In this document: in pieces, positions 1 to 48,088 of the stretch
Layout: every line of letters begins with the position of its first letter
Numbering within the stretch: the first letter of the stretch is position 1
Virus record (IMG/VR): IMGVR_UViG_3300046779_000230
Span: 23,562 to 87,561 of that record
Direction: 5' to 3' (one strand)
From: a virus
Lineage: Duplodnaviria > Heunggongvirae > Uroviricota > Caudoviricetes
Length of the DNA stretch: 64,000 bases
Notes under the pieces: model-generated
Told to the model about the DNA's origin: nothing
The model's input: only the letters and a program-made list of their open reading frames with translations
Databases searched by the model: none
Made by a program: the position numbers and the translations under genes

Positions 1-1585
1 CAGTACCAAAGTCTTCTTCTTCATTACGCAGAGCACGACCAATAGCTTTATTGTGTGCTTGTGCAGTTTTGTGCTCTGGTTCAGCGTCTGGAACTGGGTT
101 CTTTAGCTTGTACTTTGCACCACGAGAAGCATCCATCATCTTACGCTTGATAGCGTTTTCTTTGTTACGTTCTTCGATCTGCTGAACTTCTTCTTTTAGA
201 TCGCTGTGTTTGATAGTAGTCTTTGGACCATCATTGGCAGAGTGTAAGTGAACATTATCACCATCACGCTTGGCAGTCCAGTGGCGACCAGTCTCGTCTT
301 TGAACTTGTGTTCTTGTTGATCCTTCAACGCATGAATCGCTTGGTGGTGTTCTGGGTGTAACGGAATAGAGAAAGAAGAACCGTGATGTACAGTCTTCAT
401 AGTACCCCAAGAATACTTTTTAGTTTCTACTGTTGCTTCAGTGATTTCTTGCTCTTCTTTACGCAACAATTTAAAATCATGCTTGTCTAGTTTGCCGTTC
501 TTATTCTTGTCCAACTTGTGTTGGTCGCCTTTAAGTTCTTCTTTGGCAAGTTTAGTTGCAGTTGCATACATAACAGACTTGGCATCAGCACCGTATCTGT
601 CTTTAAATGAGCTAAGATTTTTCTTCATACCTTTTACGATGTCCTCTCGTTTTTTCATTTGTTCATCAGACATCTCTTCTTTAACATTAGTTGGGTGTCC
701 GTTAATTGGCTTTTTAGTAGCCTTGTATGCTTTGTGTTCTGGAGTACCTTTGATGTACTTACGATCTAGAGTTGGAGCAACTGGAGCATGCTGCTCTGTT
801 GCATATTCTTCGCGGTGAACAGTTGCACCTTTGATCTTACGTGCAACATTAGTAGCATGAGATTGAGAACCAAAAGTCTTCCACTTTTTACCGTTGATGT
901 GAACGGCATGTGGGTGATCAGCTTGCTTGGCAGGTTTGTGGTCATCCCAACCTTCATCGTTGGCACCACCATCAAGATGATATGCAAGAGATTGACGCTT
1001 GCCCATACCACTAACGCTAGACTTGTAGTCGCGAGTATATGCATCATCACGACGACCATACGCTTCTTCTACAGCTTCTTCTTTAACAGGTTTACGCCAT
1101 TCTTTATTACCATGGTAACGATCAAGATGTTTCGCAAGAGATTCTTTATCGCTGGCAGAAGCCTTTTTATGGTAGTATGCTTTCTTTGCAGAATCTGCGC
1201 TATACATTCTTGGGTTGCTTGCGATTTCACTTGGATCAAATGATTCATCAAGATCTAATTCTTCTGATACACCACGATAATGATTAAGAGCATCAGTGTG
1301 GTTATTCATTTTAGATGCCTCAAGCGCACGTTTGTTCATTTTTCGCGCATAATCTTTTTGTGCTTGTGTAGAATCTTTAGATGAAAGATCTTTTAAATGT
1401 TTAACAGCAAGGCGTTTATATGTAGTAGCCACGTCTAAGATTTCTTCTTTGACTTCTTCTTTCTTGTCAGCGTCGAACACAATGTGACGTGCTTTATATT
1501 TCTTACCAGAAGCAGAAACCTTGTAGTCTGCAGACTCGACTTCGCCTTCTTGTATTTGTTGTACGATTTCTTTAAATGTTTTCAT
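1..1585 (-). CDS. hypothetical Lys/Glu/His-rich protein; N-terminus in the window, C-terminus beyond the left edge (at least 528 aa); contains an EF-hand-like loop DKNKNGKLDKHD
   Basis: This ORF is absent from the supplied track because it has no stop inside the window. I checked every in-frame triplet from the ATG at 1585-1583 (MKTFKEIVQQIQEGEV...) down to position 2 and found no stop codon. The ATG lies 1 nt after the stop of the upstream gene (1587-1589). Only short antisense ORFs otherwise cover 1-1586. Confidence 0.7.
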   Translation of the reverse strand, partial: MKTFKEIVQQIQEGEVESADYKVSASGKKYKARHIVFDADKKEEVKEEILDVATTYKRLAVKHLKDLSSKDSTQAQKDYARKMNKRALEASKMNNHTDALNHYRGVSEELDLDESFDPSEIASNPRMYSADSAKKAYYHKKASASDKESLAKHLDRYHGNKEWRKPVKEEAVEEAYGRRDDAYTRDYKSSVSGMGKRQSLAYHLDGGANDEGWDDHKPAKQADHPHAVHINGKKWKTFGSQSHATNVARKIKGATVHREEYATEQHAPVAPTLDRKYIKGTPEHKAYKATKKPINGHPTNVKEEMSDEQMKKREDIVKGMKKNLSSFKDRYGADAKSVMYATATKLAKEELKGDQHKLDKNKNGKLDKHDFKLLRKEEQEITEATVETKKYSWGTMKTVHHGSSFSIPLHPEHHQAIHALKDQQEHKFKDETGRHWTAKRDGDNVHLHSANDGPKTTIKHSDLKEEVQQIEERNKENAIKRKMMDASRGAKYKLKNPVPDAEPEHKTAQAHNKAIGRALRNEEEDFGT

Positions 1586-2028: not shown

Positions 2029-2514
2029 TTAACTTCCTACAGCGTTGACATTATCGTAAACAGAGAACTCTGGAGTTTCAACTTTAGACTTCCAGCCCAT
2101 TTTACGCAACTTCAAAATACAATGACCTGGACCATCAAAGATCAATCTAAAGTCTTTATCAGCATAAATTCTATCTGCAAACGCATTGTGGTCAAAATCA
2201 TAATATCCAGCATTAATTAGATAATAATGATTGTGCATTAAACCAGTACCGCCGTTAACGATACGAGTAACATCAAGTTGTTTATCTTTTTTAAGACCCC
2301 ACCATATTCCAGTAATATAAACGTGAGATCCAGTATACTGAGCAAAGTGTCCGTCTGTTTCTGGAGAATCTCCAGCACCTGCTACATATACTTGTGTTGG
2401 TGTTGTTAGTACAGTACTTAGGCTAAGATCAACTGTTTGTCCAGCGGCTTCAGTTGTGTAGATTTTAAGTACAGCTTCGGTTTCTGTGTTTTTAAGAATG
2501 TGTATATTGGCCAT
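2029..2514 (-). CDS. hypothetical protein; paralog of the head-module ORF 48739-49170
   Basis: Both proteins share an N-terminus (ILK.TETEAV.K), an ITG..WG motif and a C-terminus (LKLRK..G...KVE..EF..YDN...VGS). I moved the start to the ATG at 2514-2512, which gives a TAATG overlap with the upstream stop. The track starts this ORF at 2526. Confidence 0.55.
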   Translation of the reverse strand: MANIHILKNTETEAVLKIYTTEAAGQTVDLSLSTVLTTPTQVYVAGAGDSPETDGHFAQYTGSHVYITGIWWGLKKDKQLDVTRIVNGGTGLMHNHYYLINAGYYDFDHNAFADRIYADKDFRLIFDGPGHCILKLRKMGWKSKVETPEFSVYDNVNAVGS

Positions 2515-3125
2515 TAGCAGTTCCACTTTCTAAGCGCCAAGGCTTTACGAGTTGGGCGACCCTTTTCGTCTTTCATTGGACCTTCCATACCGCCCATGCG
2601 AGCACAGAAAGACTTGCGACGTTTTGCAGCTTTGCTGTCTGGGTTTAATTTAGAAGGTGGAGTTGTGACTGGAGCTTTTAGGTTCGCACCTTTGGCATTG
2701 TAAGCGTCACGACCCTTTTGAGTCAGACCACCAGTAGAACTCTTATGTCCTTTTGCATCAACTGCATACTCCAGCAATTCTTGATCAGAAACTTCTTCTA
2801 GAGTTTCCCAGATTGATTCTACTTCTAGATTATGTTCTTGTGCTAGTTCTTCAACAGCTTGCTCGATCAAATCAAACTGAGCTTCAACAGATTCTGCCGA
2901 TGCTTTAAACGCTGCTGCAGTTGGAGCACCTTTGCTTCCTGGCTTACGCATCTTTTCACCAGAACCATTTTTGATTCTTTCACGTTTAGCGTGGATGTTA
3001 TCCCACAAGCCATTCTTACCTTCTTTGATACATGAACCTTCAGCGCATGGAGCAGTTCCAGGTTTACGCTTGTATCCTTTCCAGCAATCACATTTTTCTT
3101 CTAGGAATTGATTGAAACTTAGCAT
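2514..3125 (-). CDS. hypothetical protein with a Cys knuckle (CDCWKGYKRKPGTAPCAEGSC) and a basic C-terminus (SFCARMGG...ALRKWNC)
   Basis: The 203-aa ORF abuts its neighbours on both sides. No function was recognised. Confidence 0.5.
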   Translation of the reverse strand: MLSFNQFLEEKCDCWKGYKRKPGTAPCAEGSCIKEGKNGLWDNIHAKRERIKNGSGEKMRKPGSKGAPTAAAFKASAESVEAQFDLIEQAVEELAQEHNLEVESIWETLEEVSDQELLEYAVDAKGHKSSTGGLTQKGRDAYNAKGANLKAPVTTPPSKLNPDSKAAKRRKSFCARMGGMEGPMKDEKGRPTRKALALRKWNC

Positions 3126-3126
3126 A

Positions 3127-5475
3127 TTAGTTAGCCTTTGTGAATGTGTCGTGAGACAATCTTGATTTTTCTAGTTGGCGAATTCTTGGAACAAGTTTCA
3201 TTGCAACTCTGCCAATGATAGCCTTACGGTTCTGTAACATTCGCTCAATGCGTTCTTTTTCACCAACAGAAAGAGAAGACATATCTCTACCACGAAGGAT
3301 ACGCTTCTTCATAGTTTTGATAGCTAATCTGCGAGCACGTTTGTTGATAGTAGAATTATTAGAGTGACGACGTAAGGCTAGCTGTGCTGCACGTTCGCGT
3401 TTAGCTTCAGTCTTGCGCATACGGAATTTAGCTTTCATTCGCTCAATGCGCGAAAGAACTTCTAAGATAGCTTGTTCATTAACAGAAAATTCTAATTCAT
3501 CTCCGCTTTCTGGATCGATAACTGCAAGTTCGTCTTCGTCGTAATCATTGACAATATCATCGTCTGTGATTAGATTCAACAACTCGTCAATCTCATTTTC
3601 TGGAACGTCTTGTTCAGGTTGTCCAGCAGTAGAAATTTCTATCTTTTGATTTTCGTAAGCAGCGTCACAAGATGTTTCTTCCATTAGTTGAGCGTAGTGA
3701 GCCCAGCTGTTTTCTTCTGCTAGTTTAGATCTGTTGAGATTTTCAATTTCTTTCTTGACCTTTAGCGTATCATTACCATATTTTCTATGGTGATTGTGTA
3801 CAGCTGTTAGGTAAGCCAAACGCTTTTTAGCTGCTGTCTTATCAGACAACAGAGAGCCTTTGTCCATTTGTTGGATTTTCTTCCAATCGTCTGTTTGGCT
3901 TTCGCTCATATGTTTGATCTTCATCTTGCGAACAGTATCGCTTTGACCATGAGAAACTGAGTGACCAAGTTTTTTCTTATCAGCTGGAGACATAATATCA
4001 CCTGCTAGATTAGAGTTGCTGCTTGTGTCAACTTTAGCAACAGTGGCTTCTTTTAGTTTATTAGGTTTTAGGGTAGCGTCGTAGTCAATACCAACTTCAG
4101 TAGCCAACACTAACATCTTGTCTAAGATTGCAAGAGCTTCTGCATTCAGCGCTTTGGTTTTAACTTTACGTAGAGCATTGTTGACCAATGACTCTGGATT
4201 AGAAGAAGACTCAGCAGTTTCAATGCCGAGAATAGTAGCGATCATTCTCGCGACTTTAATCTTGTCTGTAGATTTCAAAGTCTTGTCTGTTAGTCCTTCG
4301 TTCATCTCGTCCTTACCTTTTTCTTTGTAATTAGTTAAGAAGCCTTCAATCTCATGGCGGTGCATGTGCCAGTAATCTTCGTGGTGCATAAACTCACCGA
4401 CTCTGTCTAGAGATTCTTTAGCTTTCTCGTGGTAGTTATTCCAGTCTTGTACTTCTTGTTGTGTTAGTTCTTCACCCTTTAAGTGGCGGTCATTGATAGC
4501 CATATAAGCATCAGTGCTCTTGAGAGCATTTAGAACAGCAACAGGATCTTTTTCGCCAGATCTAGCGATTGTGTCTTGGAATGCCTTCGACGCTGACTCT
4601 GCTTGGTCGAAGTTTTTAGTTGTATATCCCTTGAATGTGATTTGCTTTTTAGCATAACCAGTAGAGACATCTTCTTTTATTTGGTTTTCTGAAAGTGTAA
4701 CATCTTGGATCCACTTACGAGAAACATCGCCATTAGAATTGGCAAGGACAAGGTAATTGCTACCTCTGTCTAAAATTTCATAGCGTTGGTTGTTAGACTC
4801 AACAAATTGTCCAATGTGATAGATTTGACCTTTGTGGTATTTTTCTCTTAGAGAATCTACATCGAACTTGACATTTTCTTTTATCGCTTCAAGACCCATA
4901 CCAGAACGAATATCGTTCATTAGTCTCTTGCCATCAATGTCACGCATTGATGAAGGCAGACCAGTCTTGAATGTGGCGTAGTCGCCTTTAGAAGCCAGCG
5001 AACGCATTTTAGTGGCAGACATACCAGAAGCATCATCGGCGTCTGGATCTCGTTCACCAGCAGAAACTACTTGAATTGTATCAAAGTGGAATTCAGATCC
5101 ATTGTACTTGTTCAGCAGTTTCTCGTACTCTGGAATACGGTCACTGCCAGCAACCATAATCAGATTCTTGTACTTTTTGTTTAGTTCTTTTGCAGCTTCG
5201 ATGAATGTTCTAACTTGAGCGTTGGCTGCAACAAAGTGTGTGCGTGGAAACATAAGGTTCAAATAGTGAACCTTTTTATCTACTGGTAATGGATTCTTTT
5301 TAGCGTCTTGAGATTTTGACGCATAGATCGCATGGTCGGCACCACGCTGTGTGGCTAGTTTCTTAACTGCCTTGACTAGAAGTTCGTGTCCTGTAGTTGG
5401 TGGATTAAATCTACCAAAGGCGAACACAACTGATTTTGACGGTAATTCTTTTATTAATTGTCTGTAGTTTTTCAT
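3127..5475 (-). CDS. cytidylyltransferase/NMNAT-like nucleotidyltransferase domain fused to a C-terminal extension of about 580 aa with no recognised function
   Basis: The N-terminus has FGRFNPPTTGHELL (GxFxPxHxGH-type motif) and MSATKMRS (ISxTxxR-type motif), as in archaeal-type NMN adenylyltransferases. The rest is Lys/Glu-rich with a basic tail. A TATAAATA late motif lies 31 nt upstream. Confidence 0.6.
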   Translation of the reverse strand: MKNYRQLIKELPSKSVVFAFGRFNPPTTGHELLVKAVKKLATQRGADHAIYASKSQDAKKNPLPVDKKVHYLNLMFPRTHFVAANAQVRTFIEAAKELNKKYKNLIMVAGSDRIPEYEKLLNKYNGSEFHFDTIQVVSAGERDPDADDASGMSATKMRSLASKGDYATFKTGLPSSMRDIDGKRLMNDIRSGMGLEAIKENVKFDVDSLREKYHKGQIYHIGQFVESNNQRYEILDRGSNYLVLANSNGDVSRKWIQDVTLSENQIKEDVSTGYAKKQITFKGYTTKNFDQAESASKAFQDTIARSGEKDPVAVLNALKSTDAYMAINDRHLKGEELTQQEVQDWNNYHEKAKESLDRVGEFMHHEDYWHMHRHEIEGFLTNYKEKGKDEMNEGLTDKTLKSTDKIKVARMIATILGIETAESSSNPESLVNNALRKVKTKALNAEALAILDKMLVLATEVGIDYDATLKPNKLKEATVAKVDTSSNSNLAGDIMSPADKKKLGHSVSHGQSDTVRKMKIKHMSESQTDDWKKIQQMDKGSLLSDKTAAKKRLAYLTAVHNHHRKYGNDTLKVKKEIENLNRSKLAEENSWAHYAQLMEETSCDAAYENQKIEISTAGQPEQDVPENEIDELLNLITDDDIVNDYDEDELAVIDPESGDELEFSVNEQAILEVLSRIERMKAKFRMRKTEAKRERAAQLALRRHSNNSTINKRARRLAIKTMKKRILRGRDMSSLSVGEKERIERMLQNRKAIIGRVAMKLVPRIRQLEKSRLSHDTFTKAN

Positions 5476-5505
5476 CGTTTTCCATCTATATAAAGTAATT
5501 ATATC

Positions 5506-5513
5506 TATTTATA
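5506..5513 (-). promoter_or_regulatory. T4-type late promoter motif TATAAATA
   Basis: The motif is an exact TATAAATA on the minus strand in the 42-nt gap upstream of the ATG at 5475. A gp55 late sigma gene is present in the window. Confidence 0.55.
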
Positions 5514-5517
5514 ATTC

Positions 5518-6747
5518 TTATCTCTGCCAACCTTTGATAACGTCTGGAGAGAAGTTAGCTTTACTGAATTCTAAACGATCTACAATCTTAACAGCGCCAC
5601 CAGTTAGGTGATCAATGGCAACAAAGCCTTCGACTCCAGTTACCCTAAAGCCACTTGATGTCTTTAAGAATGTGGATATATGACCAGCTTCGTTCATCTT
5701 AGAGATTATTAGCTGCTTGGCATCAGCTATTAAAGTTGACAGTTGGAAGATTTCTGCGATTCTTCTTTGATCATGGTCTGCAAAGAACTTGACGATACGC
5801 TGGCGCTTTTCTTCGGCAGCAGCCTTGCCCTTTTCAGTCTTCTTTGAGTCAATGTCTTTTTGATAGCGAGCATGGATCCAGTCGTATAAACCTTTTACAT
5901 GGGCACGGGTGTCAGTTATTCTTTGACCTGCACGAACTTTGGTGTTGTTGTATGTATTGATCAACATATTCAACTCGTCGTCAGCAGCCATCTTGTTTAA
6001 GGCAACTGTGTCTATAACGCTAAACAACTTACCAGCGTTGGAAAGGATAGCAGTTACCTTGGCAGTTTCTTGCTTGGTGAATGTTGCTGTACCAGAGTAG
6101 TCTTTGTAAGTGGCATCGTCCATCCAGATTGTTGATACTTGATTGAACTTTGAGGCTATGTCTTTACCAAACGCAGCAGTCATAGTTTCAAACGAAGTGC
6201 CAGTGTACGTTGTGTGCCATACCACACCAATCTTTGCAGATCTTATCTTTCTACCCAACTCTGACTCAAAAGGCACAGCGTACAAAATAGTGTTTGGGTG
6301 GAATGTAATATACTTCTCACCGTCAATAGTTTCAACCTTTGTATCATCAGTGAACATCAAGTCACCTTGATAAACACCAGACTTGATACCAAGTTTTGAA
6401 AACTCAGCCAGTGCTACCTTTAATTTAGCAGCTAGATCGCCACTTGTGTCGGCATCAATCTCTGCTGCAGTTTTGTAGACCTTTGGCTCTTTGTTAAAGA
6501 CACCCTTTTTGGCAATAAAGAATTTACCGTCACGTGGATCAATACCAGCAAACACTGCTGGCGCACCGTCCCACTTGACAGTTGCTGTAATCTTAGAAGC
6601 TGAATTACCAGCCAACATGTCTCTTAGGTTTCTAAGAAAGTTAATGGCTTGACGTGTGCCATTAACTCCACCATCGAAGACCAAGTCCTCGATGTGTGTC
6701 ATGTGTGTATTCTTTTGCTCTAGAACAAATGTCTTTAAAGTTTTCAT
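5518..6747 (-). CDS. covalent nucleotidyltransferase (RNA/DNA ligase-like) protein
   Basis: Motif I is TVKWDGAPAV (KxDG), motif IV is GVEGFVAID, and motif V is GAVKIVDRLEFS. The protein is distinct from the canonical ligase at 22008-23291. Confidence 0.55.
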   Translation of the reverse strand: MKTLKTFVLEQKNTHMTHIEDLVFDGGVNGTRQAINFLRNLRDMLAGNSASKITATVKWDGAPAVFAGIDPRDGKFFIAKKGVFNKEPKVYKTAAEIDADTSGDLAAKLKVALAEFSKLGIKSGVYQGDLMFTDDTKVETIDGEKYITFHPNTILYAVPFESELGRKIRSAKIGVVWHTTYTGTSFETMTAAFGKDIASKFNQVSTIWMDDATYKDYSGTATFTKQETAKVTAILSNAGKLFSVIDTVALNKMAADDELNMLINTYNNTKVRAGQRITDTRAHVKGLYDWIHARYQKDIDSKKTEKGKAAAEEKRQRIVKFFADHDQRRIAEIFQLSTLIADAKQLIISKMNEAGHISTFLKTSSGFRVTGVEGFVAIDHLTGGAVKIVDRLEFSKANFSPDVIKGWQR

Positions 6748-6748
6748 A

Positions 6749-7963
6749 TTACTTTAGACCAAATGTACCAACAACGCCTCTGTGTGGTCCAGAAGAACCT
6801 TTCATTGTCATAGTGGCAACACGAGAAATCTTACCAGTTTCTTTGTGAGTGCCACGGATAACAGCAGAGATACCTTGGTGAACAACGTGAAGATTCTCGT
6901 AGTTCTTTAGGTGTTCGCTGGCGATACTGTCTGAAGGTTTAACAACTGCCTTAGAAGAGCCATCGCTTTGCACGTGGCTGTGCGCGACTGTGTGTGGAAT
7001 ATGTGTTGGAGCAGAAACGTGATCTGTTACAAGTTTACGTAACTCTTGATCAGATTTAGTACCGATTGCTTCTGCGAACTTTTTGGCCAGCGCTTGTTTA
7101 CCAACTAGCGCAGACGCCTCAGCTTGAGAAGCACGAGTTGCTGAATGTTGAGCAAAATGCTCTTTGTCTTTTGCTTGGTCGTGAGCGTTAACAAACATCT
7201 CTAGGTGCTTGTGCAAGTTCTTTTCTTTGGCAGATAGTTTTCTGTCTGTGGCAACCAAACCAGTTAAACGAGCATGCTCGGCACGAGCCTTGTCAATACC
7301 CATTTTATCAACTTTCCACTGAGCGTGGCGGTCTTCAGCAGAACCATGATACCCAATAGTTTCCATATTGGCATGGTGGTTTTTCATCAATCCGTTAAGT
7401 GTACCAGATGATAGTCCAGCAGTTTTCTCTAGAGAGTCAAGACCTGGATTGCGATAGTTTGGTTCTTTATTAGTACCGTACTTTGCAGAAACACCATGAT
7501 GACCAACAACCTTGCCATCTTTATGTAGCGTCATAATCAAGTCAGCGTTAGAGTTAACGTCCTTGATGCCAGTAGTCTTTTCGTGGTCGCCAGCTTTTGT
7601 TGCTTTATCTGGGTTTGATGTCCAGTGGACATTACCAACATTAACACCATTACCAAGATGACCTTCTTTGGTCAAGTGCTTTAGCAACGCTTTGGCAGTA
7701 TCTTTTGAGTGGGAATCGATCTCATTATAAGCAGCATCACCAATCTTCTTTTTAAGACGGTCATGTACTTGTTGAGGAGTACCAGCGTGGTCTTCGTTCT
7801 CAGACTCAGAACGGTGGTGTTCTGGTAGAGTGCCAGCTGGATGTAAGTGTTTTGCAAGCAGCAGTTCGTGCAGCTTGCCTTTGTCGTCAGAAGAAACAGA
7901 ACTGCTTAAAGCAGCTTCTTTGAGAACTATTTTTTCTGTTAAGAAATTCTTTAATCGTAGCAT
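6749..7963 (-). CDS. hypothetical His-rich protein
   Basis: I moved the start to the internal ATG (MLRLKNFL...), which follows the RBS AAAAGGA and lies downstream of promoter 7991-8018. The track start at 8011 falls inside that promoter. A weak PD-(D/E)xK-like pattern (NADLIM...VSAKYG) was noted but is not supported further. Confidence 0.5.
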   Translation of the reverse strand: MLRLKNFLTEKIVLKEAALSSSVSSDDKGKLHELLLAKHLHPAGTLPEHHRSESENEDHAGTPQQVHDRLKKKIGDAAYNEIDSHSKDTAKALLKHLTKEGHLGNGVNVGNVHWTSNPDKATKAGDHEKTTGIKDVNSNADLIMTLHKDGKVVGHHGVSAKYGTNKEPNYRNPGLDSLEKTAGLSSGTLNGLMKNHHANMETIGYHGSAEDRHAQWKVDKMGIDKARAEHARLTGLVATDRKLSAKEKNLHKHLEMFVNAHDQAKDKEHFAQHSATRASQAEASALVGKQALAKKFAEAIGTKSDQELRKLVTDHVSAPTHIPHTVAHSHVQSDGSSKAVVKPSDSIASEHLKNYENLHVVHQGISAVIRGTHKETGKISRVATMTMKGSSGPHRGVVGTFGLK

Positions 7964-7990
7964 ATCAATCCTTTTGAATTCAGTGTTGAA

Positions 7991-8018
7991 ATTATACATT
8001 AGATTGTACAAAAGTCAA
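7991..8018 (-). promoter_or_regulatory. sigma70-type early promoter TTGACT-16-TATAAT
   Basis: The minus strand reads TTGACTTTTGTACAATCTAATGTATAAT, ending 27 nt upstream of the ATG at 7963. Confidence 0.55.
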
Positions 8019-8755: not shown

Positions 8756-9361
8756 TTACCTAATAGAATTCTCCAAGAAGGCAAGAACTTTCGCTTGTTC
8801 CTCTAAGTTAGTGTTGTTAAACTCAGTAATATAGGACATCAGTTCAAAATTTGATAGCAAGTTACTATATTTAGTTTCTCTGCCTCTTAGGAATTGTTCG
8901 GACTGGTCTGAGCCACGATCCTTGTAGCGTTGCTCCAGTAGTTCTTTTGGAGCCTTGAGATACACAACAATCAACTCAGTGTTTGGCAAGTTCATACAGA
9001 ACTCCAAGAAAGATTGATTAAAGACTCGGTCACCTTCGAACAGGATGTTACAGTTGTTAGAAGCGATCCACTCTTGTAGTGGTGGTTGAACTGCCATGGA
9101 CAAGCGATCTGTACCAGCGAATAATTCACCTTCGTTGTACTTACCAAGGATGTACAAGTCATGCTCTTTATTATAGAGAGCAGACACTAACTTAGCAGGT
9201 TCAGTACCGATAAATTCTTTACCTTCCATGAACTTACGGAATAGCGTAGTCTTGCCTGTACCTGGACTTCCACCAACGGCAATGATCTTTCTAGTCTTGA
9301 CTTCGTTCTTGATCAACTTAACTTCGATTCGATCTGAAATACCAAATTTATCAATTAACAT
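8756..9361 (-). CDS. P-loop kinase-like NTPase (candidate DNA or nucleotide kinase of the modification cassette)
   Basis: The 201-aa product has the Walker A motif AVGGSPGTGKTTLF. Its start overlaps the upstream radical SAM gene by 7 nt. Confidence 0.55.
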   Translation of the reverse strand: MLIDKFGISDRIEVKLIKNEVKTRKIIAVGGSPGTGKTTLFRKFMEGKEFIGTEPAKLVSALYNKEHDLYILGKYNEGELFAGTDRLSMAVQPPLQEWIASNNCNILFEGDRVFNQSFLEFCMNLPNTELIVVYLKAPKELLEQRYKDRGSDQSEQFLRGRETKYSNLLSNFELMSYITEFNNTNLEEQAKVLAFLENSIR

Positions 9362-10785
9362 CTTACACCTATCATTCTCTTGTATTGTTGGAGTTTCATC
9401 TTGTTGATGGACGAAACATTGTATTTAGACTCTAGTTCATTATATCTCAGCTTTAAGATTTCGTCAATCTTAATTCCTAGATTTGCAACTGTCATGATTT
9501 GAAATTCTGCAATCTTGTTTATTGGGTCTCTACGAGACATTATAGAATTAGCGTACATGGAACATATAGTATAGTTAAGGTTCTGACTCTTTAATGTCCA
9601 TGTATTGTTGTCTGTTATTTCATATCCATAAATTTCTGGATTTAAACTAAATTCAGAACCATAGTCACCCTTGTTCTTTTTGAATAACATTAGTGGATAA
9701 ACACTTATATGGTCAACAGGATTATTTTTATCCATAATCCAATCATTGGTTTCTTCAAAATACTCTACGGTGTCATAAGGTAATCCATAGATCAAACCAA
9801 TACCTATGTTTACTTTACCATTCCACTTTTCTTTTAACCAAGACAATCTATCTTTGACTTTGTTCGGCGCGAGACTTTTACCAATGGCAATACCACTTTG
9901 CTTATTGAGCGTTTCAACTCCAAAGAAAGTGCCAACTAATCCAGCTTCTCGTAGCAAGTCAGCTTGATGTGGATACTTGTTTAACAAGTCTAGTCTAAGG
10001 TAACAAGAAAAGTTAATCTTGAAAGGCAGAGATGTGAACAGTTTGTGTATTGCTTCAATCTTGTCGTTGTCATCATTGAAGGTATCATCTGTTATGTAGT
10101 AGTTGGTACATCCAGTTGCTTCCCAAGTTTTTATCATGTCATCTCTGACTTCTTCGATGTCTCTTAAGTAAGTACCTTTCTTTTTACCAATCAAAGAATA
10201 CCCACAGAATTTACATTTGAAGATACACCCACGCGCCAACTCCAGCGGTAGAGACTCTCCGTCAAGAATAGAAAAGTCTTTTCTCCACCAATGAGTCTTG
10301 ATGTTATCCATCTTTGGCTCTGGGAATTGTTTGGAATCAAAAATCTTTGGTTGCTGTACACCATCTGCCACACCCTTTGTGTATTCAATGATAGCATCAT
10401 CTGCGTATCCTAGGATGTAAGTATCAATGCGATCATCAGAAGCCCACAAGGATCTAACACCACCATAGATCAACTGCACATTAAACTGTTTGATGTATTG
10501 AAATAGTTTGTCTACATCTGCTGGTGTCATGTGTGGAAATAGCGTTTGGTCTCCCCAGAAAAAGGTAGAAGAAAAACCAACCCATAATGTATTGTCACTG
10601 ATGTGAACACTCAATGCTTGTATGATTTCATCAACAGTAAAGTATTGAGTAAAGTCAATAACTCTAGATGTATAACCAGCGTTTTCAAGAGCAGAAGCTA
10701 TTCTGTAAGAACCCAAGTTTCTTTGGATCTGAGAATAGGTTTCTGGAGACGTTGGTCCAGCAGCAATAATAATGCAATCAATCAT
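9355..10785 (-). CDS. radical SAM enzyme with an N-terminal B12-binding-like (class B-type) domain
   Basis: ELARGCIFKCKFCGYS carries the CxxxCxxC motif. It follows a Rossmann-like N-terminal domain (MIDCIIIAAGP...LGSYRIASALENAGY). Confidence 0.8.
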   Translation of the reverse strand: MIDCIIIAAGPTSPETYSQIQRNLGSYRIASALENAGYTSRVIDFTQYFTVDEIIQALSVHISDNTLWVGFSSTFFWGDQTLFPHMTPADVDKLFQYIKQFNVQLIYGGVRSLWASDDRIDTYILGYADDAIIEYTKGVADGVQQPKIFDSKQFPEPKMDNIKTHWWRKDFSILDGESLPLELARGCIFKCKFCGYSLIGKKKGTYLRDIEEVRDDMIKTWEATGCTNYYITDDTFNDDNDKIEAIHKLFTSLPFKINFSCYLRLDLLNKYPHQADLLREAGLVGTFFGVETLNKQSGIAIGKSLAPNKVKDRLSWLKEKWNGKVNIGIGLIYGLPYDTVEYFEETNDWIMDKNNPVDHISVYPLMLFKKNKGDYGSEFSLNPEIYGYEITDNNTWTLKSQNLNYTICSMYANSIMSRRDPINKIAEFQIMTVANLGIKIDEILKLRYNELESKYNVSSINKMKLQQYKRMIGVRC

Positions 10786-11804
10786 TAAAAGAATTCTTCT
10801 AAACCAACTTGAACAGGTTTCTCATCATCAAACAACCACTCTAGGTTTTCCATCTTGCCACTACGTAAGAACAATGGAAACTTTTCTTTGTCAATACCAC
10901 GCTTGGAATCTAGACGCAAGTCAATAGTTTCGTTACGGGCTTGCCACATAACATTCCAATCAATACCATGCCAACCGTCGCCTTCGCATTTGATAATCTC
11001 TTCAGCTTGGCGATCAAGGTAGTAACCAAGATAACGCCCATGATTTTCTCTAAAGATTTTCTTAAAAGAACACAGGCATGTTTCCATGGTAAAGAAATCA
11101 ATTTGGTCTGTTAGATCTGGGAATCTTCTTCGCGTTTCTTCCAGAATGTCTCTGGCTTGTACTTCAAGAGATCCATACTCGCTTCCAGTGAGTTTTCTAT
11201 CATAATCGTCATCCTTGCCAAGGGCAAGTAGTAATCCATTACGATGAGAACGGGAACCATCATAATCGTCCAACATGAGAGAAGTAGGAGTAACAAGCAC
11301 ACCAGCAGTATGTTTAAGGTGCTGAAGATAAAACCAAGTGCTGTAACGCCCAAACTTATGCAAGCTGTTTTTAAGTACTGACCACAACGCATCAAAGTTT
11401 TGCGTCTCATTATCTCCGTAGTACGATTCGAGTGTTTCACGTTGATCTTTCTTTCCAATAAACTTTTGATACGATTCGAACATGGCAGGCAAGTGACCTT
11501 TGTTCCACTTTGTATCAGTTTGATATCTTAATCGCTTGTAGTTAGCAGTATTCCACTGCTCCATTCTATCAACAGTAGCCAACTCAAAGTCAGGAAACTC
11601 ATTCATTAGAATCCAAGCTGTTGGTAGATAGTATGTGTTACCATATAACCAACACAACCACAATCGTTGTTCATCGTTGTGTTCGTATCGCTCGTTCATG
11701 TAGTTGGTAGCCCAAACAGCTGGATCGCAGTCGTCATACTTTAACGACCATGCATACCAACGAATAAAGGCTTCACGTCGATTTTGTTTTAATCTATAAT
11801 CCAT
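10785..11804 (-). CDS. conserved hypothetical, predicted all-alpha, Trp/Tyr/Arg-rich protein; positional candidate for an aGPT-Pplase-like transferase
   Basis: The 339-aa ORF overlaps both neighbours by 1 nt. The functional guess rests only on its position within the cassette. I cannot verify any family motif from memory. Confidence 0.35.
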   Translation of the reverse strand: MDYRLKQNRREAFIRWYAWSLKYDDCDPAVWATNYMNERYEHNDEQRLWLCWLYGNTYYLPTAWILMNEFPDFELATVDRMEQWNTANYKRLRYQTDTKWNKGHLPAMFESYQKFIGKKDQRETLESYYGDNETQNFDALWSVLKNSLHKFGRYSTWFYLQHLKHTAGVLVTPTSLMLDDYDGSRSHRNGLLLALGKDDDYDRKLTGSEYGSLEVQARDILEETRRRFPDLTDQIDFFTMETCLCSFKKIFRENHGRYLGYYLDRQAEEIIKCEGDGWHGIDWNVMWQARNETIDLRLDSKRGIDKEKFPLFLRSGKMENLEWLFDDEKPVQVGLEEFF

Positions 11805-12445
11805 TATTTTAAAAAGTCTTCAAGAGATGGCTGATCCATCAGTGCATCTCGTAGCCATGCTTTACCAACTGTATCAATAGCAGCTTGAGTCTTTGCTTTC
11901 TTTTTGTCACCCCAAGTGTAAGACTCTAAACCTTCGCGACGGAATTGTTCACGAGCTTTTTGTGGTGGTAATGCTTGTAGTGGATTTACGATGGCGTTGT
12001 CTCTGTAAGCAATTTGCTCGGCACGTGTAGCGAATAGTGGTTGGTCACTGCGGAGTGAACCTGTTGGATCAACTGCCCAGAAGACCAAACCATTGCGTAT
12101 GTGCCAGCTGACAGAGGTTGGTGTACAAGAGATTTTAAGTCGTTGGACTTTTCGTTCTTCAACTGCATATTTGATCCAAGAGTCCCAGCACTTTGACGCA
12201 TATCCCTTTCCTTCTTTACCTTCAACTGTAACGATTTCATACAGGTTTGCATAGCCATCTCGATTGAATGTGGCAAAGATTAAAGAGACAACTTCACCGT
12301 TGTCTTCGAATGCCATTGGCAGATTCTTTTCATAATTATGAAAGCGAGTCCATAATGAATGTGCAGCCGATAAGAACTTGGTGTTCTTACCAGCTGGACT
12401 TGAATCAATAATTTGTTGAACTTTAGTTGAGTTAATGAATATCAT
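11804..12445 (-). CDS. GNAT-fold N-acetyltransferase-like protein
   Basis: VTVEGKEGKGYASKCWDSWIKYA matches the acetyl-CoA loop pattern (Q/R-x-x-G-x-G/A). It is followed by RLKISCTPTSVSWHIRNGLVFW. Confidence 0.5.
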   Translation of the reverse strand: MIFINSTKVQQIIDSSPAGKNTKFLSAAHSLWTRFHNYEKNLPMAFEDNGEVVSLIFATFNRDGYANLYEIVTVEGKEGKGYASKCWDSWIKYAVEERKVQRLKISCTPTSVSWHIRNGLVFWAVDPTGSLRSDQPLFATRAEQIAYRDNAIVNPLQALPPQKAREQFRREGLESYTWGDKKKAKTQAAIDTVGKAWLRDALMDQPSLEDFLK

Positions 12446-13142
12446 GTTGATAATCTACAGCGCTTTTAATAGAGACTGCACGCAATTCCATTTTCAAGTC
12501 GCCATCAAGTTTAATGTATGTATTCATTGGAACTTCCATAGTTGGAAGAAACAATCCAGCACGTTGTGGAATATCGGCAGTAGAAGTAATTATACTACCA
12601 TTAGTCATTGTAGTCAAATATAATGGTCGTTTGCCATTACGGTAAACAGTTACCTCTTTGGTAGATGCAATAAGTTGACAAACAGCCATGGACATATTAC
12701 TGAACTCTTCTAGTGGACTTTTTGCGTGTAGCACCAATTCACTGTCGTTCTTTGTTTCAGTTTTATAACCGTACAACTCTTGCCACTTTTCTGGCAGTTC
12801 TTGGGTAATAACACCATTGTGAACAATAGCAACATTATCGTTACCCAACGGTTGGTTATATTCCAAGTCGCTAGTTGAATAACGGCAGTGTCCAATCATA
12901 TACAAGTTTCCATCTTCATTCAAGAATGATTTGAAGTTATCATTATGCATGTGTTTCTCAACGAATTGATCAGCTGGGATCGCTTCTTTGATTGTAACAA
13001 GGTTACCTTTATTCCAAGCAGGAATAAAAGAAATACCAGTGGCGTGCAAACCACGAATCTTTGATTCAACGAATACACGTTTTAAGGATTCAAAATCCTT
13101 CAGAGAAGGATTCTGTATAACTGCTCCGATAACGGCACACAT
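12432..13142 (-). CDS. stand-alone class-II (Ntn) glutamine amidotransferase domain
   Basis: The protein starts MCAVIGA, giving the nucleophile Cys2. It also has IGHCRYSTSD..NQP, VHNGVITQ and KNDSELV. At 236 aa it has no fused synthase domain. Confidence 0.8.
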   Translation of the reverse strand: MCAVIGAVIQNPSLKDFESLKRVFVESKIRGLHATGISFIPAWNKGNLVTIKEAIPADQFVEKHMHNDNFKSFLNEDGNLYMIGHCRYSTSDLEYNQPLGNDNVAIVHNGVITQELPEKWQELYGYKTETKNDSELVLHAKSPLEEFSNMSMAVCQLIASTKEVTVYRNGKRPLYLTTMTNGSIITSTADIPQRAGLFLPTMEVPMNTYIKLDGDLKMELRAVSIKSAVDYQHDIH

Positions 13143-14536
13143 TAGAAGAAACTTTCAAGTGAATTAGATTTATCTGACTCTGGGTGATACTTCAACAACA
13201 CTTCTGCGCCAAGTTTTTTCTCGCAGTAGTCATACCACTCTTGACTTTCCCACATACCAGCAGAAACACCATTCCAAAGATGACGCTCAGAGCCGTCTTC
13301 GTTTCGGTGACCTGCATGCTCTTTGTTCAAACGACGAGATTCAACAAACTCATAACGGCAGTCTTCATACTCTTTTGAACCAAGTTCAAGCATCTTTTCA
13401 CGGAAATAACAAACCAGTGAAATACGTTCGGCTTCTTCATCCAACAATTCAATTGGAGTGTTACCGTGCATAACTTCGTGGTTGTTGATCAACAGCAAGT
13501 CGCCTGGACGTACATTGACAGCAACGCGATACTCTGGAGCAATTAGATAACCACCCTTGTAATTGCCGTTGTTAGAAAGAACCAACAAGTTAGAAAGACC
13601 ACTATTCAAGTCGCCTGCATCAAAGTGTGCTGCAGTACGGAATGTTTTGTTAACAGTGATTGTAGTGAATGGAGTTTCTGGAACCAAGAATTGTGGATCA
13701 AGTTTCTTGGCAGCTTCCATTTGATTATTGTAACGCCATGGCATCAACTCTTTAAAACCTTTGGCAAGAGTCTGTAGGAATGGGAATGCCATCTCAAACT
13801 TCTCACGATTCTTTTCAGTATAAGAAGTTGCACGACCATAAGGGATACGTGGGTAACGATCAAACCAACCAGCAATACCAGAGAACACACCGTTGGCATA
13901 AGTTGTTTGACAAACATATTTCTGCACAACACGCTTGGCTTCGGCACGTTGTTCATCCAAACTCAATTTACGAGTACGCTCAACCCACTCATCAAAAGTG
14001 AAATTGTCCTTTTTAACCGCCTGAATACTCCAAACATTGTTCTTATTAGAAGGCTGTTCTTTCTTGTTGGCGTGTTGACGCTTTAGTTCTTCGATTGGAT
14101 CTTCACCAAAGATGTTGGCTTTGGGATTAGAAAAGTAATCAATCACATCGTACTCATACTCAGTGACCCACTCTCTGTTACCCAACTTGTCTTTTCGTGG
14201 ACCAGCTGCGATGCCACGGTTTTGAGTCTCAACAGCTGCTTCACGTAGCCCAACATATGCAGCCAACTGTTCTTCTTTTGAGAAGAAGTTCTTACGGAAC
14301 TTAAATGCAATACGCATTTCATCCGTACCTTTAGGGCAGCTGGAGCAGTCTTTGTCTGTGTCGCAAGATGCTTGTTGAGCGATATCGCAGTTTACTGGCA
14401 TGTAAACGTCGGCGTCATAATCAACTAGAATATCGTAATGTGATTCGTCTACAAACTGACCCAGAAGATGAGAACAGTCGTGCTTTTTATCAGCCACGAT
14501 AATTTTAACATTTCTACCTTCATCTATTTTACTCAT
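13142..14536 (-). CDS. 2OG-Fe(II) dioxygenase of the TET/JBP family
   Basis: FRTAAHFDAGDLNSGLSNLLVL (HxD..[ND].N.G), KGGYLIAPE, HEVMHGNTP and ERISLVCYF align with the catalytic-core strands of metazoan TET as I recall them (AHxHRDxHNxxNG; GGVAVAP; HATTP; RISLVFY). There is an N-terminal Cys cluster, NCDIAQQASCDTDKDCSSC. Confidence 0.75.
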   Translation of the reverse strand: MSKIDEGRNVKIIVADKKHDCSHLLGQFVDESHYDILVDYDADVYMPVNCDIAQQASCDTDKDCSSCPKGTDEMRIAFKFRKNFFSKEEQLAAYVGLREAAVETQNRGIAAGPRKDKLGNREWVTEYEYDVIDYFSNPKANIFGEDPIEELKRQHANKKEQPSNKNNVWSIQAVKKDNFTFDEWVERTRKLSLDEQRAEAKRVVQKYVCQTTYANGVFSGIAGWFDRYPRIPYGRATSYTEKNREKFEMAFPFLQTLAKGFKELMPWRYNNQMEAAKKLDPQFLVPETPFTTITVNKTFRTAAHFDAGDLNSGLSNLLVLSNNGNYKGGYLIAPEYRVAVNVRPGDLLLINNHEVMHGNTPIELLDEEAERISLVCYFREKMLELGSKEYEDCRYEFVESRRLNKEHAGHRNEDGSERHLWNGVSAGMWESQEWYDYCEKKLGAEVLLKYHPESDKSNSLESFF

Positions 14537-42124: not shown

Positions 42125-42656
42125 CTACTCCATCATCAATAAATTCATCTAAGTTTGGTTGCTTTTTCTTTTTCTTTTCTTTTTTGCGTTCAATAAACGT
42201 ATCGTCAAACGTCTGATTGGCTTGCATAAATTCAAGATAAGCATTGTGGTATCCTGTACCTTCGTCTTGCTCTTGCAGTTCAAACATCTCAAAGGGCATG
42301 TCTTGTATCAACTTGCCTTTGATGTATGATTGTTTCTTTTCTTTTGCTATCCTACGCAAGAATGCATAGTAAATAATTTGGGTGAAGTATGCAAAAGGAT
42401 TGCTGGACTTGTCTGGGTTAAAGTTATCAATGTACTGAATGCAGTTCTCGATACCGTCGAGAATCATATCATCACGATATGAGTAGTTGATAAAGTTTGG
42501 CTTGTACGAAAGGTGATTGGCGATCTTTAAGATGCATTCACCGATGTAGTTGCTAATGATTGGCTTGGGTCTGCCTTCTTGTTTAGCCAACTCCACAGAG
42601 TCTCTATACTTAATTAGTGCATCTAAAAAATCTTTGTTATTTACGTAGTGAGCCAT
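42090..42656 (-). CDS. gp55: late-transcription sigma factor (T4 gp55 homolog)
   Basis: YVNNKDFLDALIKY parallels T4 YVNNKELLQAIIDW. NPFAYFTQIIYYAFLRRIAKEKK parallels T4 [23 protein letters not shown]. Confidence 0.9.
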   Translation of the reverse strand: MAHYVNNKDFLDALIKYRDSVELAKQEGRPKPIISNYIGECILKIANHLSYKPNFINYSYRDDMILDGIENCIQYIDNFNPDKSSNPFAYFTQIIYYAFLRRIAKEKKQSYIKGKLIQDMPFEMFELQEQDEGTGYHNAYLEFMQANQTFDDTFIERKKEKKKKKQPNLDEFIDDGVDDVTEREGLDQ

Positions 42657-48072: not shown

Positions 48073-48088
48073 TTATTTATTATTTATC
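48073..48088 (-). promoter_or_regulatory. late promoter motif GATAAATAATAAATAA (two overlapping nATAAATA boxes)
   Basis: The motif lies 42 nt upstream of the gp22 ATG and overlaps the gp21 stop codon. An identical 16-mer occurs at 58101-58116. Confidence 0.55.

Follow-up and report, generated by a model that had tools for sequence, protein, structure and literature searches.

This locus raises the question of what a nucleotidyltransferase (NT) of 782 residues does for the phage that encodes it, and where it acts. The original prediction saw a single open reading frame in which an NMNAT-like enzyme is fused to a domain of about 580 residues, an arrangement that it called atypical. The frame is indeed single and continuous, and it lies on the minus strand, which had not been given before:

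3127..5475, minus strand: complete coding sequence of 782 aa, stop codon included (open reading frame, with homologue and cluster comparison)

The fusion, on the other hand, turned out to be ordinary. More than 5,400 homologues were found, the best 120 of which all measure 680-1280 aa, and long forms also occur in isolates (DLP6, 722 aa; HTVC008M, 596 aa); judged from these comparisons, the long architecture is common. The protein matches PHROGs 3041 and 395, the phage 'cytidyltransferase' family (E 4.2e-71 and 7e-57, respectively), and by sequence it belongs, as one of the long forms, to a "cytidyltransferase/NMNAT-like" family that is widespread among aquatic T4-like phages; two separate searches each brought up homologues of this family by the thousand. 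Literature searches for 'cytitidyltransferase' and 'DUF6267' found no papers, and no biochemical characterisation of any PHROG 395/3041 family member appeared in the literature searched. The family itself is already known; what is new here is a leader, on this gene and its neighbours, that resembles a capsid-targeting sequence of T4.

5446..5475, minus strand: leader MKNYRQLIKE, residues 1-10, like the T4 capsid-targeting sequence (CTS), its I-K-E being of the kind that gp21 cleaves (sequence likeness)

The T4 CTS reads MKTYQEFIAE (PMC8442874), and experimental mapping has shown that its residues 4 and 7 serve in targeting and its residues 8 and 10 in processing (PMC9026906). MKNYRQLIKE resembles it at these mapped positions (Y4, L7, I8 and E10), with an aromatic or hydrophobic residue at 4 and 7 and [ILV]-x-E at 8-10. 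Conservation among 81 long homologues is high (M1 and K2 100%, Y4 90%, L7 93%, [ILV]8 100%, E10 85%), and 109 of 120 short homologues of the cyanophage type start with M-[RKN]-F-x-[QE]-F-[IL]-x-E-A, eight of the other 11 carrying the motif 8 residues downstream. In the cyanophage forms leader and NT domain are set apart by about 25 aa of low-complexity linker, and in our protein the leader is modelled with a pLDDT of only about 50, so that we do not count it as part of the fold. There are departures from the T4 pattern as well: Glu10 is followed at P1' by Leu-Pro in the 782-aa protein as against Ala in the leaders of T4 ipII and ipIII (translated, with ipI, for this comparison), position 10 of HTVC008M gp130 is not Glu, and neither the S-PM2 DUF6267-NT fusion nor the cyanophage DUF6267 proteins carry a leader. 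A literature search combining 'capsid targeting' with 'cyanophage' found a T4 review alone.

Within the window, by which we mean the whole 64-kb stretch of DNA analysed, MKNYRQLIKE shares first place when 486 Met-initiated 10-mers are scored by BLOSUM62 against the T4 CTS, and the best four of the 486, scored blind, are the N-termini of the NT gene and three neighbours. A loose regular expression for the leader matches four adjacent window genes only, and five of seven consecutive genes have a leader-like N-terminus. The neighbouring genes are as follows:

5518..6747, minus strand: DUF6267 gene, upstream partner, 409 aa, CTS-like start MKTLKTFVLE (leader score 27), invariant K-[WY]-D-G (Pfam PF19782, E 1.6e-108)
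6749..7963, minus strand: upstream gene without a family match, probable true start the ATG at 7963, giving MLRLKNFLTE (leader scoring)
2514..3125, minus strand: downstream gene with a DUF6321 domain, CTS-like start MLSFNQFLEE (Pfam PF19846, E 7e-25)
1..1585, minus strand: gene running off the window start, N-terminus MKTFKEIVQQIQE (leader score 28), its first six residues being those of T4 IPI (MKTFKEF)

The same pattern extends to 80 related loci, where a score of at least 20 is reached by 6.5% of Met near ORF N-termini against 0.68% of internal Met, and where about 20 unrelated families carry the leader. Leader-bearing ORFs are enriched for ATAAATA upstream. The NT gene also adjoins a variable DNA-modification cassette. 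Elsewhere in the window we found:

48084..48737, minus strand: gp21-type protease of head maturation, which would be expected to take off the leader (PHROG 207, E 1.4e-76)
42090..42656, minus strand: gp55-type late sigma factor, expected to read a promoter of the TATAAATA type (PHROG 234, E 1e-60)

A gp45 clamp, a scaffold (PHROG 237, E 1.5e-78), a portal and a major capsid protein are encoded as well, and the window thus holds the prohead protease and scaffolding core that go with internal head proteins of the T4 type.

Two elements lie upstream of the start codon:

5506..5513, minus strand: TATAAATA, T4-type late-promoter-like element, 30 nt 5' of the ATG (exact match)
5482..5494, minus strand: conserved TTTATATAGATGG element just 5' of the start codon (conservation in related loci)

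The exact TATAAATA that the original prediction placed upstream is there, but taken alone it is not above chance, the window having 2 copies where 3.2 would be expected. The window count of ATAAATA is by itself not above chance either; its ten copies all lie on the coding strand, and most stand shortly before genes for head or tail, such as those for the scaffold, the tail tube and other virion proteins. Of 43 related loci, about 37 have a (C/T)(T/A)TAAATAAT element at the same position before their homologue of the gene, the TATAAATA/CTAAATAA element being kept upstream of the gene in relatives, and most of the related loci keep TTTATAGATGG just 5' of the start codon, with its ATG in frame or out of it. 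We therefore weigh TATAAATA and ATAAATA only by strand, position and conservation across loci, not by their counts. With a gp55-type sigma factor and a gp45 clamp in the window and a promoter-like element conserved in relatives, the late timing proposed for the 782-aa gene is plausible.

The internal head proteins (IPs) and Alt of T4 are directed by a CTS, processed by gp21 and ejected with the DNA. The present protein shares with them a leader of about ten residues that matches MKTYQEFIAE at the mapped positions and ends in [ILV]-x-E; as at the T4 ip loci, several unrelated neighbouring genes have this leader in common, in the company of a gp21-type protease and a scaffold; the cargo would be a large enzyme, like Alt, and part of it is highly basic, like the IPs. 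It differs from Alt in being a nucleotidyltransferase of the HIGH type and not an ADP-ribosyltransferase, and packaging, cleavage and ejection are here predicted from sequence; its carriers, moreover, are aquatic T4-like phages related to Kyanoviridae and not Tevenvirinae. Since the N-terminus is like the head-loading signal of T4, the protein is probably, on a modest balance, an enzyme that the phage head carries as cargo and that enters the host together with the DNA, as Alt and the internal proteins of T4 do.

Homologues have been met in particles. S-SZBM1_140, a homologue by our own comparison (35% identity, E 1e-43), is among the proteins that mass spectrometry detected in purified virions (PMC9146016), S-CREM2 ORF154 was detected in virions too (PMC10665884), and short homologues were also found in the virions of S-SCSM1 and S-CBWM1; the published detections consist of 2-3 peptides, for which their authors allow carry-over contamination. 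Several cyanophage studies found the family in virion proteomes without explaining why. S-SZBM1_139, another virion-detected protein, was considered as an equivalent of DUF6267 or of the C-terminal MID and TAIL modules described below and set aside, HMM tests showing neither; the DUF6267 homologue of that phage is S-SZBM1_141, which is not reported in virions. It had been supposed that the long extension might tether the enzyme to a particle: the link with the particle fits the evidence, but the likely signal is the N-terminal leader and not the C-terminal extension.

What the enzyme would do depends on its NT domain, of which the main features are:

4876..5436, minus strand: nucleotidyl(adenylyl)transferase domain of the HIGH superfamily, residues 14-200 (motifs and fold)
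5386..5397, minus strand: T27-T28-G29-H30, (H/T)xGH motif (conservation in 60 homologues)
5002..5022, minus strand: M152-S-A-T-K-M-R158, SxTxxR motif (S153, K156, M157 and R158 invariant in homologues)

Residues 14-200 form an intact TxGH/SxTxxR nucleotidyltransferase of the NMNAT/PPAT fold class, with the Rossmann-like fold, the (H/T)xGH motif and the ISxT-type motif of the HIGH-motif superfamily (Pfam PF01467 clan). Of the two motifs on which an NMN/NaMN adenylyltransferase had been proposed, MSATKMR stands at 152-158, but the supposed HxGH, within the stretch GRFNPPTTGHELL (residues 21-33), is really TTGH, with T27 and H30 invariant and G29 at least 90% conserved in 60 homologues, and the HxGH with both histidines that characterises NMN/NaMN adenylyltransferases is absent. 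The nearest folds are NadM/archaeal NMNAT, PPAT and NadD, the PPAT score almost equalling that of NMNAT, and cytidylyltransferases are less near. No sequence model assigns the domain to the NMNAT, PPAT, NadD or cytidylyltransferase families; the NadR and NadD models of NCBIfam give 14-16 bits against cut-offs of 112-341 (TIGR01526, 15.7 against 341; TIGR00482, 13.8 against 112), and among PDB chains phmmer with the whole protein and a 60-sequence profile returned only weak, non-significant or low-complexity matches. In comparison with NadM/archaeal NMNAT and with NatV of KVP40 (NMNAT-Nudix, NARP2-type salvage), the 782-aa protein has TxGH instead of HxGH, no Nudix domain and no Nampt/NadV in the window, while it departs from phosphopantetheine adenylyltransferase (CoaD) by a second motif that ends in Arg as in NMNAT, by the lack of a sequence-level match and by its extra domains. 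A reading of the NT domain and the barrel that follows it as FAD-synthetase-like was dropped, the barrel having only about 55 residues and the NT domain alone aligning to RibF.

These comparisons bear on the alternative that survives best, on its enzymatic side the reading of the original prediction: a cytoplasmic late NMN/NaMN adenylyltransferase that sustains or rebuilds NAD+, is not packaged and resembles a CTS incidentally. It agrees with the nearest folds (NMNAT, NadD), with the SxTxxR motif, with the JGI pipelines, which call homologues NaMN or NMN adenylyltransferase, and with cyanophage papers that label the family NMNAT. We nevertheless regard it as unlikely, since no NMNAT model reaches threshold and the PPAT score is nearly equal, no Nampt, Nudix or Adps/Namat partner lies in the window, the leader is kept across two subfamilies and is common to unrelated neighbouring genes, and homologues have repeatedly been detected in virions. 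That the window has no NadV/Nampt partner had been noted before, and it holds, by PHROGs or Pfam, for ORFs of at least 320 aa other than the one truncated at the start of the window, and for some of the smaller ORFs; the co-encoded Nampt/NadV of NARP2-type systems is thus not found within the 64-kb window.

A second alternative turns on the DUF6267 gene, which adjoins the NT gene or sits 1-3 genes 5' of it in DLP6, HTVC008M, S-SZBM1 and three related loci (L007-L009). In S-PM2, p142, annotated 'cytidyltransferase', comprises the C-terminal half of DUF6267 and the NT domain, p141 being the N-terminal half; the fusion is real and its gene model odd (the p141/p142 split), and PHROG 455 was set aside as proof of a clean DUF6267-NT fusion. 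With a DUF6267 protein that would be ligase- or capping-like by its K-x-D-G, the NT enzyme might be directed at nucleic acid or protein, for example at DNA or RNA ends at entry, the barrel and the basic tail binding the polymer. We hold this to be quite improbable, given that small-molecule adenylyltransferases fit the fold better and that no relation between DUF6267 and ligases was detected: neither phmmer nor a 4-sequence profile matched the PDB, and hhalign against the ATP-dependent DNA ligase of the window gave 0.3% probability. DUF6267 as a ligase was accordingly rejected, the idea resting, for want of such matches, solely on the K-[WY]-D-G pattern.

Very improbable, in turn, is the sugar-phosphate or glycerol-3-phosphate cytidylyltransferase implied by the GenBank name 'cytitidyltransferase', which would feed cell-wall or DNA-glycosylation precursors. 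A match to Pfam CTP_transf_like that is marginal only, the family names in PHROG and GenBank, and the variable DNA-modification cassette beside the gene are in its favour; cytidylyltransferases (TagD and CCT, acting on glycerol-3-phosphate or choline-phosphate) are not nearest by fold or by sequence.

The remainder of the protein, which had been taken for one domain of 580 residues, is in fact a succession of modules:

4690..4863, minus strand: small Tudor/KOW/SH3-like beta-barrel, residues ~205-262 (fold)
4669..4680, minus strand: I266-K-E268/D269, conserved [ILVF]-x-E-D junction (conservation and starts of separate genes)
3916..4671, minus strand: 'MID' domains, all-helical and conserved, residues 269-520 (conservation profile and AF2)
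3619..3915, minus strand: variable low-confidence linker, residues 521-619 (alignment and AF2)
3478..3618, minus strand: conserved acidic patch, residues 620-666, net charge -19 (conservation and charge)
3130..3477, minus strand: 'TAIL' module, basic, helical and conserved, residues 667-782 (conservation, AF2 and charge)

Two statements about this region have stood: it carries no recognised motif, searches of Pfam, NCBIfam and PDB sequences returning no match for it (no Pfam/NCBIfam domain lies past residue 116), and it ends in a tail rich in Arg and Lys (residues 667-782, pI 11.9, net charge +23). AF2 models residues 281-380 with a pLDDT of 82-97 and residues 401-470 with 83-88, and the linker has an identity to homologues of 0.10-0.17 and an alignment occupancy of about 0.4-0.6. 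Foldseek with the C-terminal 502-residue model against the PDB gave nothing significant; the best match, a chain of the cyanophage A4 pre-ejectosome (E 0.23, TM 0.17), was set aside as non-significant. Because there is no fold match, we read the role of the C-terminal 500 residues from charge alone. The TAIL module matches PHROG 23027 (E 8e-11), stands at the C-terminus of hundreds of proteins, some of them with other N-terminal regions, and occurs also in gp159 of Sinorhizobium phage phiM12 and in Rhizobium phage RHph_I1_18. The cyanophage and pelagimyophage 'cytitidyltransferase'/NMNAT-like proteins (PHROG 395 and 3041; Syn9 gp184, S-SZBM1_140, HTVC008M gp130, DLP6 AAY80_068) have a homologous NT domain and barrel (35-43% identity) and share the DUF6267 neighbour, the CTS-like leader and members detected in virions; the cyanophage forms differ in measuring 350-400 aa, without the helical MID and the basic TAIL, and HTVC008M in having another C-terminal module, DUF5824.

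Between barrel and MID, 126 of 130 sequences have E268, and I, V, L or F occupies position -2 without exception. In many phages the MID and TAIL part is a separate gene that starts with M-[ILF]-x-E-D at this junction, and in one locus (L010) start and stop overlap there (ATGCTGAATGA). By comparison of sequences, I266-K-E268/D269 is a natural fission point of the 782-aa protein, and it is a candidate second protease site. That both halves are separate overlapping genes in some relatives could suggest that the long ORF arose artificially when two genes were fused by a sequencing or assembly frameshift, a reading that can practically be discounted in view of the unbroken frame, of other 782-aa members of the 90%-identity cluster in at least nine other independent records from three sources (NCBI, JGI and Logan), of a cluster representative 99% identical to the protein, and of fused homologues in the hundreds.

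Coming back to a cargo enzyme delivered with the DNA, the successive steps can be pictured as follows. The gene would be transcribed late from the gp55-type promoter (TATAAATA), the CTS-like MKNYRQLIKE would draw the protein into the prohead's scaffolding core, and the gp21-type prohead protease would cut the leader off after Glu10, at the I-K-E site; the same protease may also cut at I-K-E268/D, parting enzyme and barrel from the helical and basic portion. It is probably the basic C-terminal module (+23) that keeps the protein attached to the packaged DNA. On entry, residues 14-200 would most likely adenylylate a small phosphorylated metabolite, the leading candidates being NMN or NaMN, giving NAD+ or NaAD, so that a role in NAD+ metabolism is possible, and the similarly tagged, co-encoded DUF6267 protein may work with the NT enzyme. 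It is tempting to go further and to see in the conserved island of aquatic T4-like phages, with its adenylyltransferase, DUF6267 K-x-D-G protein, DUF6321 proteins and several small IP-like proteins under a shared CTS-type leader, a pre-packaged kit of injected enzymes. In such a kit the adenylyltransferase, alone or with DUF6267, would restore or make an adenylylated cofactor (NAD+ or a relative) as the DNA enters, or would adenylylate a macromolecule of host or phage, a counter-defence or takeover delivered as protein; we offer this wider scheme as a speculation that is unlikely to hold.

Few unexplained genes are as widespread in marine and freshwater T4-like phages as those of this family. 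A T4-type capsid-targeting leader, if it proves true, would account for the way in which the protein gets into the particle, would make a whole set of neighbouring genes candidates for coding injected proteins, and would extend a mechanism of T4 to phages of cyanobacteria, SAR11 and methylotrophs. Finally, if the enzyme makes NAD+, it would represent a variant of phage NAD+ counter-defence that is delivered as protein.

A single uninterrupted ORF of 782 aa was found on the minus strand at 3127..5475, where the original prediction had placed it, and a frameshift or assembly artefact can be dismissed because 782-aa members of its cluster recur in NCBI, JGI and Logan records. The representative of its 90%-identity cluster is 782 aa long and 99% identical, eight further members from these sources have the same length, and residues 1-290 are matched at 100% identity by two IMG/VR contigs. 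Residues 21-33 read GRFNPPTTGHELL and residues 152-158 read MSATKMR; the first motif, announced as HxGH, is actually TTGH, whose Thr27 is invariant in 60 homologues. Module borders were drawn from conservation along the protein, two AlphaFold models and charge analysis.

Modules of the 782-aa protein
residues 1-10: leader, pLDDT about 50
residues 14-200: nucleotidyltransferase (NT) domain, TxGH and SxTxxR motifs invariant
residues 269-520: conserved helical domains (MID), model largely confident (pLDDT 82-97 over 281-380, 83-88 over 401-470)
residues 521-619: variable linker, conservation and confidence low
residues 620-666: acidic patch, net charge -19
residues 667-782: conserved basic helical module (TAIL), pI 11.9, net charge +23

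The C-terminal region, for which structure prediction had been advised, could be modelled as several modules, but its last 502 residues gave no significant match to solved folds in a structure-model search (best E 0.23).

The first motif, TxGH, has the PPAT form; the second, SxTxxR, has the NMNAT/NadD form. Sequence comparison assigns the NT domain to nothing narrower than the broad superfamily PF01467 (21.5 bits, cut-off 21), and no solved relative of the protein was found by sequence or by family profile. Foldseek ranked NadD first (E 3.6e-6), followed by human NMNAT, FAD synthetase and PPAT, a ranking that marks the modelled domain as an adenylyltransferase-like member of that superfamily. 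The proposed NMNAT identity is borne out in fold resemblance but not in family membership, the target falling far below threshold with the NadR and NadD family models; NMNAT is the leading candidate activity, not an established one. The target also matches PHROG 3041 (E 4e-71) and PHROG 395 (E 7e-57), both named 'cytidyltransferase', and its homologues in T4-like cyanophages are called 'cytitidyltransferase' in GenBank, an activity that we consider less likely.

The fusion had been described as atypical, a view that did not hold. There were 572 tblastn matches among isolated phages, chiefly T4-like cyanophages, and more than 5,400 homologues in a metagenome protein collection; the best 120 of these are all 680-1280 aa long and long forms also occur in isolates (DLP6, 722 aa; HTVC008M, 596 aa, with a different C-terminal module, DUF5824), therefore the long architecture is typical. 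An exhaustive search with residues 281-782 matched 994 representative proteins. When domain HMMs were run on the best 144 new representatives, 72 had the full NT-to-TAIL architecture, 47 had barrel/MID/TAIL or MID+TAIL without the NT domain, and 16 had the TAIL module alone after other N-terminal regions. The TAIL module was likewise seen without an NT domain in rhizobiophages, mid-protein in phiM12 gp159 (602 aa; locus L003, 4341-6149) and C-terminally in a 255-aa RHph_I1_18 protein (locus L004, 4620-5387). Many MID+TAIL proteins start with M-[ILF]-x-E-D-I-x-P-G-Y-A-P, exactly at target residues 266-269, and in the related locus L010 the end of the NT-barrel gene and the start of the MID+TAIL gene overlap in ATGCTGAATGA. 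The two halves, being either fused or encoded by coupled genes, are thus functionally linked. At this barrel/helical junction 126 of 130 sequences have Glu268, with Asp269 behind it and only I, V, L or F occurring at position -2; the pattern fits the [L/I]-x-E site of the prohead protease gp21 and coincides with the natural fission point, so that cleavage might occur here, judging from the sequence.

Internal proteins of T4 enter the prohead via a 10-residue capsid-targeting sequence (CTS), MKTYQEFIAE, which is then removed by gp21 (PMC8442874). In mutational mapping, targeting depended on positions 4 and 7 and processing on positions 8 and 10, and the CTS has been reviewed as perhaps a general route by which T4-like phages load diverse proteins (PMC9026906). 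The T4 genome confirms MKTYQEFIAE/A in ipII and ipIII and MKTFKEF... in ipI. Our target begins with MKNYRQLIKE/LPSK, and among 81 long homologues M1, K2, [ILV]8, L11 and P12 are conserved in 100%, Q6 in 99%, L7 in 93%, Y4 in 90% and E10 in 85%. Short cyanophage-type homologues start with M-[RKN]-F-x-[QE]-F-[IL]-x-E-A in 109 of 120 cases (e.g., MKFLEFIKEA), sharing the ...EFIxE/A part with the T4 CTS, and an Ala/Lys/Thr-rich linker of about 25 residues separates this leader from the NT domain.

The leader is shared by neighbouring genes. All Met-initiated 10-mers of the window's 67 proteins were scored with BLOSUM62 against the T4 CTS, the target itself not serving as query, and the top four of 486 were all gene N-termini: the target (28), MKTFKEIVQQ of the gene running off the window start (28), MKTLKTFVLE of the DUF6267 protein (27) and MLSFNQFLEE of the DUF6321 protein (21), against a background mean of -1.7 (SD 6.8). 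Of 484 Met positions, 4 fitted a loose regular expression; they belong to four adjacent genes and include Met17 of 6749..8011. Taken together, the two scans place the leader in five of seven consecutive genes. In a wider survey of plus-strand ORFs from 80 related IMG/VR loci (1.07 Mb), scores of at least 20 were reached at 175 of 2,702 Met positions within ORF residues 1-26 versus 51 of 7,524 internal ones. The leader-bearing ORFs (e.g., MKTLKDFIAE, MLKFKEYIAE) form about 20 single-linkage families, including the NT family, DUF6267 (36 loci) and a 202-205-aa family (8 loci), and several are of T4 internal protein size (77-138 aa). Some high-scoring 10-mers (MLTYSEFMAQ, MKSYKDFVQS) occur far into very long ORFs (L025 6466+, L030 7446+, L040 4045+, L017 15362+), some 90 residues short of the C-terminal end, and could be internal leaders or small genes merged by a simple ORF caller.

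The gene directly 5' of the target is DUF6267 (E 1.6e-108), which adjoins the NT gene or lies 1-3 genes upstream in cyanophages, HTVC008M, DLP6 and three metagenomic relatives. In S-PM2 (locus L012, 3016-4795) p142, annotated 'cytidyltransferase', consists of the NT domain fused to the C-terminal half of DUF6267, whose N-terminal half is the separate ORF p141; this reflects either genuine splitting and fusion or a frameshift in the deposited sequence. The fusion is why PHROG 455 hits both genes in the window. DUF6267 has an invariant K-[WY]-D-G-A-P, with EG-x-V and K-x-V-D-R further along, a pattern reminiscent of covalent nucleotidyltransferases; neither profile searches nor an hhalign comparison with the DNA ligase of the window detected a ligase relationship. 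Further upstream, 6749-8011 (-) has a mechanical TTG start and no family match; its true start is probably the ATG at 7963 (Met17), giving the CTS-like MLRLKNFLTE, and a sigma-70-like TTGACT-16 nt-TATAAT and a CTAAATAA element lie 5' of it. On the other side, the DUF6321 protein (2514-3125, -; PHROG 16028 over residues 37-78) carries a short basic motif, GLW(D/A)NIHAKR..., which is also present in small neighbours of relatives (L009 6699-6971, L002 3830-4342) as well as N-terminally in one MID+TAIL protein (P0134) and which appears to be a mobile mini-module. A Dps/ferritin-like gene without CTS-like leader (1587-2027, -; PHROG 3636, PF00210 in relatives) lies 3' of the NT gene, 1-2 genes away, in all relatives examined (L007-L010). 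The gene running off the window start (1-1585, -; 616 aa in L013/L014) opens with MKTFKEIVQQIQE and has the same first six residues as T4 internal protein I (MKTFKEF); relatives encode a 611-750-aa protein with similar leaders at this position.

The predicted late expression gained support. At 5506-5513 (-), TATAAATA is found without mismatch 30 nt 5' of the target ATG. Counts are by themselves uninformative, since neither TATAAATA (2 copies, 3.2 expected) nor ATAAATA (10, 14.6 expected) exceeds expectation in the window. Each of the ten ATAAATA copies is in coding-strand orientation, and most precede the start codon of a virion gene (scaffold, tail tube and others) by some 20-90 nt; (C/T)(T/A)TAAATAAT occurs 28-32 nt 5' of the homologous ATG in about 37 of 43 related loci with intact N-terminus, amid diverged flanks. 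ATAAATA is present in the 100 nt 5' of 15.6% of leader-bearing ORFs but of 8.3% of the others (p = 0.003). Because the window also encodes gp55 and gp45, late transcription of the target has good support. A further element, TTTATAGATGG (5482-5494, -), ends 4-6 nt 5' of the NT-gene start codon and is kept in most related loci (L013-L050), its ATG in frame or not; it may serve as a signal in translation or transcription.

All window genes are on the minus strand, and PHROG scans identify a T4-like myovirus with DNA polymerase, DnaB-like helicase, UvsX, UvsW, UvsY, clamp loader, gp45 clamp and gp46/47, the late sigma factor gp55 (E 1e-60), a gp21-type head maturation protease (E 1.4e-76), and major head protein, scaffold, portal, tail tube, sheath and large terminase. 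Gene order is that of the Kyanoviridae phage S-SZBM1; no close nucleotide relative was found among isolated phages, the nearest by protein being Melnitz, HTVC008M, phage C48C1 and DLP6. Between the DnaB-like helicase and the leader-gene cluster, 8756-14536 (-) looks like a DNA hypermodification cassette.

Genes of the cassette
8756..9361 (-): P-loop kinase-like
9355..10785 (-): radical SAM (PF04055)
10785..11804 (-): amino acid:DNA transferase (PF18724)
within 8756-14536 (-): 213-aa gene of unknown kind
12432..13142 (-): glutamine amidotransferase-like
13142..14536 (-): DpdA/TGT-like (PHROG 24024)

The equivalent slot holds Tet_JBP in the related locus L007 and AGT, DNA methylase and dCMP deaminase in L009, which suggests an exchangeable island of DNA-modification genes. 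Amid the tail and structural genes, 60433-61806 (-) encodes another protein with a radical SAM domain (PHROG 1802, E 4e-64), preceded by an ATAAATA element.

Homologues of the target have been detected in virions. S-SZBM1_140, found in purified particles by mass spectrometry (PMC9146016), is 35% identical to the target over 277 aa (E 1e-43), matches the NT and barrel HMMs and starts with MRFRQFIIEA. S-CREM2 ORF154 was also detected, its authors noting that such proteins often are and cautioning about carry-over (PMC10665884), and S-SCSM1 ORF91 and S-CBWM1 were reported likewise (PMC9602691). Neither these papers nor the literature searched tied the family to a capsid-targeting sequence. The suggestion that the extension might tether the enzyme to a particle points the right way. 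Domain architecture, fold class, the leader and its presence in neighbouring genes, the encoded machinery, the conserved promoter element and the occurrence of homologues in virions are demonstrated here or in the cited work; for the target itself we infer packaging and cleavage, and likewise its substrate and what its basic tail does. The best-supported reading is that of a CTS-tagged enzyme that would be expressed late, enter the prohead through its tag, lose that leader to the gp21-type protease and reach the host together with the DNA, in parallel to T4 Alt, except that the cargo would be an NMNAT/PPAT-class adenylyltransferase. Such a reading offers a testable mechanism for a very widespread and unexplained gene.
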